Below are positions 17,052-19,511 of a stretch of 32,000 bases of DNA, one piece after another. The DNA lies in the NCBI RefSeq assembly GCF_008000775.2, contig NZ_CP042905.2:180001-212000 (forward strand). The letters run 5' to 3'. How positions within the stretch are numbered: the stretch's first letter is position 1; each line of letters opens with the position of its first letter. The notes below the pieces were generated by a model. It had not been told where the DNA came from and searched no databases. It worked only from the letters and a program-made list of their open reading frames with translations. The position numbers and the translations under genes are program-made. Source of the DNA: Promethearchaeum syntrophicum (GTDB taxonomy: Archaea > Asgardarchaeota > Lokiarchaeia > Sigyniarchaeales > Promethearchaeaceae).

Positions 17052-19511
17052 TTAAGTAAAATAAGCAGAAATTGGTTTTTGAACCTTTGGTTTAAATCGA
17101 GTTTGTGTTCCAGATAGAGTTTCAAGATTTCTTCTAATACTTTCAGGAATTTTATAAGGCAAAAGATTGATTAATGCGCGGACAAGGAGTTCCTTATATT
17201 TTGAGATATCATAGGAGGCATTTTTCATATGATAAATATCAATAGGTAAAACTCGATCTTGAGGATTACGAGCTTTATCTTTAACAATAACAAAGGACAC
17301 TTTTTGTCCCGGGCCTATAGAAACCCCGTGCTTTTCTAAATATCTAGCCGCTATCGCTTGATAGTTTTGCACTTTATATTCATTAAATCGGCGAGTGACA
17401 CGAATAGTTATCGCGAGTTTTTCCGGATTTACACCCCGTGATTCCAAATCACGATAATATTTGAGAAGAACTGGGACAATTTTTGATGATAATAGCCATT
17501 TAGAATTGTCAACAATAGGTGAAGAACTAATCGCTTCAATCATTTCTTGCTGAAATTCTTTGATAAAAGGAGGAGAATCATGTCGTCTTAATTCTATTCC
17601 TCGAACTTTTATCGCCCCGTTTTGTTTTACTCCCCAATATCTGTTCAATGCTCCAACATTAGGATCCGCTTTCGTGGGTAAAAAAGAAATGAATTTAAAA
17701 TAATCATTTTCTGGGTTGTATCTTATCGGAATTAAAGATTTTTGAGTAATTTTTTCTACAACTTCTAAGCATTTTTTTTGAAAGGTTTCATCATCCATTG
17801 AATCTGGAGCTCTTACATAAAGAGAATCTACAATACCATGAATCATAATAAGTCCATGATTCTCACAGATTTTCATCGCTTCAAGCAATAATTCACGAGA
17901 ATACGCGCAAACTGTTTGATGTGCCTCTATACGTCCAAAACGTGCATTTCGAAACCCTAAATATCCAAAACATACAACCAAGATCCATTTTAGTGCTTCT
18001 TCCATTTTTTCATATTTCTTTGATTCATGCTCGTTTTTATTTTTGGATAGGTTTTTATAACTAATTCTCTTAGTTAGCGGAACCCGTAATGATAAAGGCA
18101 CAATCCCCTTTCGCTTAGAACATAAATGGTAATCCAAACCTGGTACTTTATTTTCTGAAGATTCGCAACATTTGCAATTTACTATCTCAGGTGAGACATT
18201 GTACTGAACCATTAACGCAGGATACATTGATGTGAAGTCAATTTCTGCAACTCGTCTAAAAAGCCCAATTTTTGGATTTAGTATGTGCCCACCACGATCA
18301 GTTGAAAGGAGAACTGTGCTTTCTCGAAAATCTTCTGAATTTTTTTTGATATCGGGAATTAAAATTCCTAAAGCATAAGCATGGTAGAATTGAAGTGACT
18401 GTAAAGCACCCCCAATTGTCACTCGTGTCAAACGTTGTAATGGTGAATAAGTTACTCTGGCTACTTCTATTAATCCAAAGAGGTTTCCGTCATCAAAGTG
18501 CAAACCACCATAAATTGCAGAATCAATATGCATCCTTCCATTTAGATAAAACTGTGAATTCGATTTATGATGTACTATCCCATAAGACATAAAAGAATTT
18601 GAACCGTTCTTTAAAAATCGCGTAGATTTCAGCGAAGCTCCATCCCGAGAAAGAGAAAAATGATTTTCAAGGCGTAAATATGAAGCACGAAAGAGAAGAT
18701 AGGGAAAAAGTTCTTCATCACCGTGAGAAGTAAATATAACATCAGGATCGATTTTTTTAATTGCTACCTGTAAAGTAAAGAGCATTTGTCTTTCATTTTT
18801 TCCTTCAATAATAATTTGTGGCCTACCATGCTTATCTGTAACGATTTCCGAAGGTGAAAATAATGAGTTCAGAGATATATTTACACTACACGGATCTACT
18901 GTTAACTTACAATTTTTCAATCGATCGGTTCCTTTTTTTCTCAAACCAAGCTGTTCAACTTCAATTTCTAGCCAAATAACTCTTAAAGGAGGGAATTGAT
19001 ATAGAATAGATTCATTAGAATCATTAAGGATGATAGAATGAACAATTAGATCTGTTTGTTTCTTTTTAAGTTGAAAAGAGCAAAACGCAAATGGGAATAA
19101 TCCAGTTTCATAGAAGAACATCTGAGTTAGGGGTATATCTATGTTATAGAAATTAAACTGCTCGAGCTCTTTTATTTGACGAACTGTTTTTTTGAATTTG
19201 AATGGAGAATCTACTTGAATTCGAATTACTTGAGAAAATTGAGAATCTTCTGCTTTGATACGTCGTTTACATATTACTGCAGATTTAATTTGGGGGTGAG
19301 CTTGCATCGCGTTGATGAATTTTTGATAATCTACATTGTTACTGGTTTTCTTATCATTGAATACTTGTTTTTTTGGAACGATATAAAAAGAAGGTTGAAA
19401 TTCATATATAGCACGAACAACTACTCCATTTTTTTTCTTTAACCAGAGTAGTATCCCCTTTTCATGAACCATTAGATCAATGATCCATGCGTCAAATAGA
19501 ATATCTTGCAT
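17052..19511 (-). CDS. polB: Family-B DNA polymerase, divergent (degenerate 3'-5' exonuclease motifs, non-canonical motifs B and C, C-terminal PIP box)
   Basis: Motif A is EIDFTSMYPALM. The archaeal-type Cys insert reads NCKCCESSENKVPGLDYHLCSKRKGIVPLSL. Motif B region is ALKWILVVCFGYLGF, motif C region is IHGIVDSLYV, and there is a KVRGIELRRHDSP match. The C-terminus is QKPISAYFT. The ATG at 19511 (MQDILFDAWIIDL) is preferred over the GTG at 19523. Confidence 0.9.
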   Translation of the reverse strand: MQDILFDAWIIDLMVHEKGILLWLKKKNGVVVRAIYEFQPSFYIVPKKQVFNDKKTSNNVDYQKFINAMQAHPQIKSAVICKRRIKAEDSQFSQVIRIQVDSPFKFKKTVRQIKELEQFNFYNIDIPLTQMFFYETGLFPFAFCSFQLKKKQTDLIVHSIILNDSNESILYQFPPLRVIWLEIEVEQLGLRKKGTDRLKNCKLTVDPCSVNISLNSLFSPSEIVTDKHGRPQIIIEGKNERQMLFTLQVAIKKIDPDVIFTSHGDEELFPYLLFRASYLRLENHFSLSRDGASLKSTRFLKNGSNSFMSYGIVHHKSNSQFYLNGRMHIDSAIYGGLHFDDGNLFGLIEVARVTYSPLQRLTRVTIGGALQSLQFYHAYALGILIPDIKKNSEDFRESTVLLSTDRGGHILNPKIGLFRRVAEIDFTSMYPALMVQYNVSPEIVNCKCCESSENKVPGLDYHLCSKRKGIVPLSLRVPLTKRISYKNLSKNKNEHESKKYEKMEEALKWILVVCFGYLGFRNARFGRIEAHQTVCAYSRELLLEAMKICENHGLIMIHGIVDSLYVRAPDSMDDETFQKKCLEVVEKITQKSLIPIRYNPENDYFKFISFLPTKADPNVGALNRYWGVKQNGAIKVRGIELRRHDSPPFIKEFQQEMIEAISSSPIVDNSKWLLSSKIVPVLLKYYRDLESRGVNPEKLAITIRVTRRFNEYKVQNYQAIAARYLEKHGVSIGPGQKVSFVIVKDKARNPQDRVLPIDIYHMKNASYDISKYKELLVRALINLLPYKIPESIRRNLETLSGTQTRFKPKVQKPISAYFT

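Follow-up and report, generated by a model that had tools for sequence, protein, structure and literature searches.

Is a family-B DNA polymerase that departs from the canonical exonuclease and nucleotide-binding motifs a failing enzyme, or do the changed motifs mark a specialised kind of polymerase? The question is raised by a gene at 17052..19523 on the minus strand of a 32,000-nucleotide stretch (bases 180001-212000, hereafter the window) of the Promethearchaeum syntrophicum genome, which is a single contig of 4.32 Mb with ~29% G+C. A first-pass annotation, made from the sequence by eye, had suggested a proofreading-deficient polymerase that might be specialised or catalytically impaired, and reminiscent of the archaeal PolB2 group. 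We conclude that the gene is very likely an ordinary archaeal PolB2 (Dpo2-type) and the catalytic subunit of the translesion 'mutasome' of an Asgard archaeon. The resemblance to a specialised, proofreading-deficient PolB2 is borne out by the dead exonuclease site, motif C, the D(K/R) loop, the neighbouring gene for the inactivated RadA paralogue iRadA and the presence of PPB2 genes in the genome.

Motifs of the polymerase

The gene encodes 823 amino acids when read from a GTG codon at 19523. The database version of the protein starts four codons downstream, at the ATG at 19511, and has 819 amino acids. Its nearest homologues carry the labels Promethearchaeota, Lokiarchaeota or Promethearchaeum sp., and the Pfam domains DNA_pol_B (Pfam: PF00136; 6e-31) and DNA_pol_B_exo1 (Pfam: PF03104; 2e-9) are found on it. 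We recomputed the motif strings and their coordinates, all on the minus strand, from the translation of this open reading frame (ORF) and recovered every string that the first-pass annotation had listed, each at its position.

In the HMMER alignment to the PolB of P. abyssi, FTSHGDEELFPYLL aligns to ITYNGDNF(D/A)FPYLL (Exo II), DFTSMYP to DFRSLYP (motif A), KWILVVCFGYLG to KILANSYYGYYG (motif B) and HGIVDSLY to YIDTDGLY (motif C). A profile of 80 homologues, which are 33-88% identical to the window PolB2 and range from Asgard lineages to Bathyarchaeia, was searched against PDB sequences as a second route and gave the same equivalences for Exo II and motifs A, B and C. The same 80 PolB2-family homologues were also aligned, profile to profile with hhalign, to 30 canonical Asgard PolBs including the canonical PolB of this genome. 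Family counts given below refer to these 80 homologues.

Judging from these alignments, the exonuclease active site is absent from the window PolB2, with the catalytic residues of Exo I, Exo II and Exo III all lost. At Exo I, hhalign matches the canonical P-x-L-R-x-x-x-D-I-E to P-P-L-R-V-I-W-L-E186-I-E188, which puts E186 and E188 of the strand WLEIEVE (18954..18974) on the Asp and Glu of DxE. The earlier reading, that DxE has become ExE, was therefore right about the positions and wrong if ExE is taken as a conserved feature, because both columns are variable: column 186 holds D24/E23/H8/S6/R5 and others, column 188 K14/E11/V10/D8 and others, and the two rank among the most variable columns of the family. 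In the Exo II equivalent SHGDEELFPYL (18696..18728) the canonical catalytic Asp falls on L272, by HMMER as well as hhalign, and this column is Leu, Val or Ile in 71 of the 80 homologues. The Exo III helix, a segment of ~45-60 residues with the YxxxD motif, is deleted throughout the family between HIDSAIYG and LIEVARV, where the first-pass annotation had failed to find it. No canonical DxE, NxxxFD, YxxxD or DTD residue had been overlooked by eye, according to both HMMER and hhalign.

The polymerase motifs were also read correctly. Motif A (DFTSMYP, 18219..18239) retains the catalytic Asp, D429, which is invariant in the family, and carries the steric-gate Tyr at Y434, a position occupied by Tyr in 71 and Phe in 9 homologues. 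Motif B (KWILVVCFGYLG, 17955..17990) stands in place of KxxxNSxYG: K512 is retained, and V516, V517 and F519 occupy the positions of the canonical Asn, Ser and Tyr. K512, V516, F519 and G520 are each found in 80/80 homologues. In motif C (IHGIVDSLYV, 17814..17843) DTD has become IVD, with I564 at the first Asp and D566 at the second, the only one retained. I564, V565 and D566 are again each present in 80/80, and H562, the PolB2-specific His, in 79/80.

PolB2 signature and family conservation

The published hallmarks of PolB2 are Exo motifs that are deleted or radically changed, a motif C without its first Asp and with an invariant His placed two residues upstream of it, a D(K/R) motif conserved in a loop close to the active site, and operon linkage to iRadA and PPB2 (PMC8764526, PMC11791011). 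An ExFxxA loop of PolB2 has moreover been assigned to iRadA binding, in a published model in which it mimics the FxxA oligomerisation motif of RadA/Rad51 (PMC11791011). All of the sequence hallmarks are present in the window PolB2, namely the dead exonuclease site, the HGIVDS motif C, the D(K/R) loop and an FxxA-like loop. The last is EDFRES (18318..18335), of the ExF(K/R)xA type, with E397 conserved in 80/80 and F399 in 76/80 homologues; position 402 is Ala, Gly, Ser or Val in the family and Ser here. The D(K/R) motif, located by the family alignment, is D409-R410 (18294..18299), with the Asp in 80/80 homologues followed by Arg in 68 and Lys in 12. A KVRGIExRRxD block downstream of the motifs is almost invariant.

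Direct comparison with tabulated PolB2 strings gives the same picture. S. solfataricus PolB2 reads VDKGG, DFSSMYPS, KWILVASFGYLGY and HGIIDSL; the row for a Lokiarchaeota PolB2 gives ALKWILVVSFGYLGF...HGIVDSMWL, annotated 'IVD' with the operon type iRadA-PPB2-PolB2 (supplementary tables, PMC11791011). The strings of the window PolB2 are identical to these or differ by one conservative change. On the window PolB2, the NCBIfam models PRK05761.1-2 and PRK05761.1-4 reach about 320-340 bits, against <=50 bits on the canonical PolB of the genome. These signature motifs and NCBIfam scores make placement in the PolB2 clade probable. From the family alignment, the unusual motifs are a conserved family signature and not a sign of degeneration, because the substituted residues are themselves fixed across the 80 homologues.

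A further feature of the family is a cluster of four cysteines, C450, C452, C453 and C468 (CKCC-x14-C, 18120..18176), each present in 79-80 of 80 homologues. It is positioned where the Thermococcales PolB carries a disulfide pair, and could form a metal site or have a disulfide role.

Fold, selection and catalytic competence

The AlphaFold2 model of PolB2, built on the 80-sequence alignment, has a predicted local distance difference test score (pLDDT) of 89.2 and a predicted template modelling score (pTM) of 0.88; its lowest-confidence segment, residues 395-399, lies in the EDFRES loop. Foldseek matched the model over its full length to the KOD/9N (Thermococcales) PolB with a template modelling (TM) score of 0.69-0.76, best on DNA-bound replicative states. 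Together with Pfam, the model and this match show the family-B fold with palm, fingers, thumb, N-terminal and exonuclease-like domains. The full-length superposition on the Thermococcales PolB indicates that the exonuclease domain is retained as a fold despite the loss of its active site.

Selection was estimated with the Nei-Gojobori method by comparison with the congeneric genomes L008 and L009, in which the protein is 86-87% identical. The ratio of nonsynonymous to synonymous substitution rates (dN/dS) is 0.13 for the whole protein, confirming the purifying selection that the first-pass annotation had proposed to look for, with 0.09 in the polymerase half and 0.21 in the N-terminal/exonuclease-like half. 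A related-locus search with the single protein picked up, besides two close congeners, only three distant PolBs, and a broader genome survey was used instead. In this survey orthologues were found in most of the Asgard genomes sampled, with about 120 of the listed match rows (201 genomes) at E ~1e-90 or better.

The replacement of the first Asp of DTD and of the motif B Asn, Ser and Tyr could be taken to mean that the protein has no catalytic activity, being a pseudo-polymerase that only serves iRadA and PPB2 as a PCNA-docked scaffold, and earlier comparative work (before 2020) did predict PolB2 to be inactive (cited in PMC8764526). We give this reading little credence. Dpo2 with the same substitutions equals the replicase in primer extension (PMC8764526), D429, D566, K512 and G520 are invariant and the steric gate is Tyr or Phe in 80/80 homologues, all of which would be superfluous for a pure scaffold, and the lowest dN/dS of the protein lies in its polymerase half. 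The robust activity of Dpo2 with these substitutions (PMC8764526) and the invariance or near-invariance of D429, D566, K512 and Y434 also disfavour the hedge in the first-pass annotation that the enzyme might be catalytically impaired.

The iRadA neighbour

Directly upstream of PolB2 on the same strand lies a gene of 283 codons (19513..20364, minus) with a Pfam Rad51 match (3.7e-14). Its stop is 1 nucleotide before the ATG of PolB2, or the two genes overlap by 11 nucleotides if PolB2 starts at GTG. The NCBIfam RadA models match this protein only from model position 64-69, indicating that it has no N-terminal domain. Its degenerate Walker A reads YGPKKMLTS (20218..20244, minus) where RadA has GEYRTGKTQ. 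When aligned with the three other RadA paralogues of the genome, GPKKMLTS takes the place of G(E/A/K)(Y/F)(R/K)(T/S)GK(T/S), and no Walker A GK[TS] is left. With dN/dS of 0.16-0.18 against the congeners, the gene is under purifying selection. By these sequence features it is iRadA, an inactivated RadA/Rad51 paralogue that consists of the RadA core and lacks the N-terminal domain and the ATPase residues.

PPB2, the third known subunit

PPB2, defined as a small three-helix protein with an N-terminal MGRT arm, was not found within the window. A genome-wide regular-expression search for ORFs starting with MG[RK][TS] gave one candidate, and tblastn gave a second one with ATA as its first codon. The first (G000:C1:574098-574382, plus strand) has 94 amino acids, starts with MGRTLPSFR and stands alone beside cysS, at a distance of 375 kb from iRadA-PolB2. 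Over its whole length it shares 52-62% identity with small ORFs located directly upstream of PolB2 in 27 of the 27 sister-family loci examined, and it has MGRTxPSFR in common with them. PPB2 also adjoins PolB2 in three further genomes, G012, G075 and G165, the last from another genus of the same family. Within this genus and genus g2, PPB2 lies on another contig or far from PolB2. The single-sequence model of PPB2 is all-helical and of low confidence (pLDDT 69).

The second paralogue (G000:C1:747973-748233, minus strand) is 55% identical to the first and lies 243 nucleotides upstream of a gene for a 581-residue protein with a CoiA-like nuclease domain. Its counterparts in the two congeners begin with ATG; the copy with ATA in this genome may be start-codon-impaired or may use a near-cognate start. 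PPB2 genes upstream of PolB2 in the genomes G168 (L019) and G186 (L028) have ATC or ATA at the conserved initiator Met of the MGRT arm and two others have TTG, and non-ATG starts may be recurrent in PPB2.

Gene order indicates that PPB2 was dispersed by a rearrangement, specific to this lineage, of an ancestral operon of three genes, because PPB2 adjoins PolB2 in related families and is distant from it in this genus and genus g2.

Putative clamp-binding motifs and other polymerases

The C-terminus of PolB2, QKPISAYF-T, contains a match to the PCNA-interacting protein (PIP) box Qxx[ILM]xx[FY][FY] (QKPISAYF, 17058..17081, minus), for which binding is predicted. The box is also present in the congeners and is common in Lokiarchaeial homologues; of 80 tails, 18 match strictly and 32 loosely, and the box was not found in the tails of the Bathyarchaeia members listed. 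A PIP-like NLTLDKYL is present in the C-terminal tail of iRadA (19540..19563, minus), matched by KNxTLDxW[FIL] at the C-termini of the iRadA of relatives. Clamp binding via iRadA tails has been proposed before (PMC11791011), and in this lineage both PolB2 and iRadA appear to have such motifs.

There is a small chance, and we rate it as rather unlikely, that these features add up to a re-wired mutasome in Promethearchaeum, in which the duplicated and dispersed PPB2 and the clamp tails on PolB2 and iRadA would allow assembly to be regulated by a separately controlled supply of PPB2, or alternative PPB2 hetero-trimers to form, and two PCNA subunits to be engaged simultaneously.

Besides PolB2, the genome encodes PolD, a canonical proofreading PolB and a Y-family polymerase, which makes a division of labour between inserter and extender polymerases possible. 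The canonical PolB (G000:C1:3682885-3687153, plus strand) has DIE, NGDNFD, YNLVD, DFSSLYP and DTD. It is interrupted by a 424-residue intein inside motif B (KVFING | intein | CYGVFG) and has a Lys-rich, low-complexity N-terminal extension of ~150 amino acids.

Proposed function

Sulfolobus and Saccharolobus Dpo2 are robust polymerases that have no exonuclease and extend mismatches and lesions (PMC8764526), and in S. islandicus genetics tie dpo2 to damage-induced mutagenesis (PMC8764526, PMC7390963). By analogy, we infer that the window PolB2 is active, does not proofread and extends mismatched or lesion-opposed primer ends in damage tolerance, probably on PCNA, and that it forms a complex with its partners and binds the clamp. 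It would be an active family-B polymerase working with D429 of motif A, D566 of motif C, K512 and the steric-gate Y434. Because Exo I, II and III have lost their catalytic residues, it should have no 3'-5' exonuclease, and the exonuclease-domain fold would be retained as a structural module. In canonical family-B polymerases, the Asn and Tyr of KxxxNSxYG are part of the fingers helix, which is in contact with the nascent base pair and the incoming nucleotide; the V516 and F519 substitutions are plausibly part of an adaptation to distorted primer termini. Like Sulfolobus Dpo2, the enzyme would take over after another polymerase has inserted a nucleotide. PolB2 would be co-expressed with iRadA from the overlapping upstream gene and bind it through the ExFxx(A/S) loop, bind a trimer of the small helical PPB2 via the MGRT arm near D409-R410, and dock on PCNA with its C-terminal QKPISAYF.

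Several points weigh against this picture. On the window PolB2, the NCBIfam models of PolB2 type fall short of their curated cut-offs (340 vs 516 and 692 bits). The Dpo2 enzymes that have been characterised come from thermoacidophilic Crenarchaeota, whereas the window PolB2 belongs to a mesophilic Asgard archaeon; they are also ~200 amino acids shorter, with a more decayed exonuclease domain, whereas the exonuclease fold is complete here. The FxxA-like motif reads FRES, not FKxA, and PPB2 is not co-located with PolB2 in this genome. What has been published on the architecture of the complex was predicted with AlphaFold and not solved experimentally (PMC11791011).

An active PolB2 might have its main job in recombination-associated or gap-filling synthesis rather than in translesion extension, for example in RadA D-loop extension, to which its RadA-like partner would target it. 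The obligate association with a RadA paralogue and the FxxA-like interface (PMC11791011) would fit such a role, and PIP boxes would be in keeping with clamp-dependent repair synthesis of any kind. We nevertheless consider it very improbable, since iRadA has neither the N-terminal domain nor the ATPase site, PolB2 is not paired with an active RadA in the published models (PMC11791011), and the S. islandicus genetics link dpo2 to damage-induced mutagenesis (PMC8764526, PMC7390963). That the gene arose by duplication of the replicative PolB and is decaying to a pseudogene has next to no probability: in its favour is only the loss of canonical motifs, read by eye, and against it stand the intact frame, the low dN/dS, the invariance of the substituted positions, the confident model and the orthologues in most Asgard genomes sampled.

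Among the candidates rejected, the pseudogene reading was ruled out by selection and conservation. A protein-primed or mobile-element PolB was ruled out as well, as the protein matches cellular archaeal PolBs and synteny at the locus is kept in the congeners.

Other features of the window

A gene for a P-loop, AroK-type shikimate kinase (Pfam: PF01202; 4e-45) is found at 20612-21124 on the plus strand, divergent from the iRadA-PolB2 pair. Beside the HIT gene downstream of PolB2 there is a block of ~4.8 kb (11382-16146) with a DDE transposase, a 451-residue ORF, thiC and small ORFs. The block is missing in the two congeners, where synteny jumps from window position 16147 to 11381, and is probably an insertion or rearrangement. 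A small variable island is found at 22119-23492: two adjacent ORFs, one of 252 amino acids without a Pfam match and one of 172 amino acids with DUF4430, correspond to ~90 nucleotides in the congener L008.

An EF-Tu-family GTPase at 23943-25412 (minus strand) matches archaeal SelB domain III (Pfam: PF21440; 1e-7) and is a possible candidate for a selenocysteine-specific elongation factor. It is adjoined by a Roadblock/LC7-domain gene at 23530-23946. No orc1/cdc6, SRAP or DUF72 genes were seen among the window ORFs scanned, and scanning the window with Rfam and for tRNAs gave no RNA genes.

Comparison with known systems

The motif signature of PolB2, its partners and its occurrence in Lokiarchaeota and other Asgard archaea were already published between 2014 and 2025 in papers of comparative and biochemical work, among them the Dpo2 papers of Feng et al. 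2020 (PMC7390963) and Feng et al. 2022 (PMC8764526) and the Asgard/Lokiarchaeota PolB2 operon catalogue of Timinskas et al. 2025 (PMC11791011). Specific to the system described here are the dispersed and duplicated PPB2, the PIP-like motifs on both subunits and the well-preserved exonuclease-like domain. Its value for Asgard biology is modest and lies in a genome from a cultivable lineage with the full set of PolB2, iRadA, PPB2, PolY, canonical PolB and PolD. Sulfolobus Dpo2 forms inclusion bodies in E. coli (PMC8764526), and the mesophilic PolB2 might be easier to express there.

With the Dpo2 of Sulfolobus islandicus and Saccharolobus solfataricus, the window PolB2 shares the motif B KWILVxxFGYLG (with S. 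solfataricus, KWILVxSFGYLGY), the motif C HG(I/V)(I/V)DS, the D(K/R)GG loop, the lack of exonuclease catalytic residues and the partners iRadA and MGRT-PPB2. It differs from them in carrying its own canonical PIP box and in gene order, which is iRadA-PolB2 with PPB2 elsewhere in this genome and PPB2-PolB2-iRadA in Sulfolobales. The Lokiarchaeota/Asgard PolB2 (PMC11791011) have in common with it the clade, the motif strings and predicted PCNA-binding motifs in PolB2 or iRadA. The catalogued Lokiarchaeota operons, however, have three genes, of type 1a (iRadA-PPB2-PolB2) or 3b (PPB2-PolB2-iRadA), whereas PPB2 lies outside the operon in this genus, and PIP-like tails, which occur on both PolB2 and iRadA here, are rarely found in both subunits according to PMC11791011.

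The canonical archaeal PolB (Pfu, KOD, Tgo, P. abyssi and the one encoded by this genome) shares with the window PolB2 the five-domain family-B fold, motif A, the Lys of motif B and the second Asp of motif C. It is ~20% identical to it, possesses DxE, NxxxFD, YxxxD, KxxxNSxYG and DTD, and proofreads. The eukaryotic Pol zeta (Rev3) is not an orthologue of PolB2, retains DTD and has other accessory subunits. Its likeness to PolB2 is a functional analogy (PMC8764526), that of a proofreading-free B-family polymerase extending mismatched or lesion-opposed ends after an inserter polymerase.

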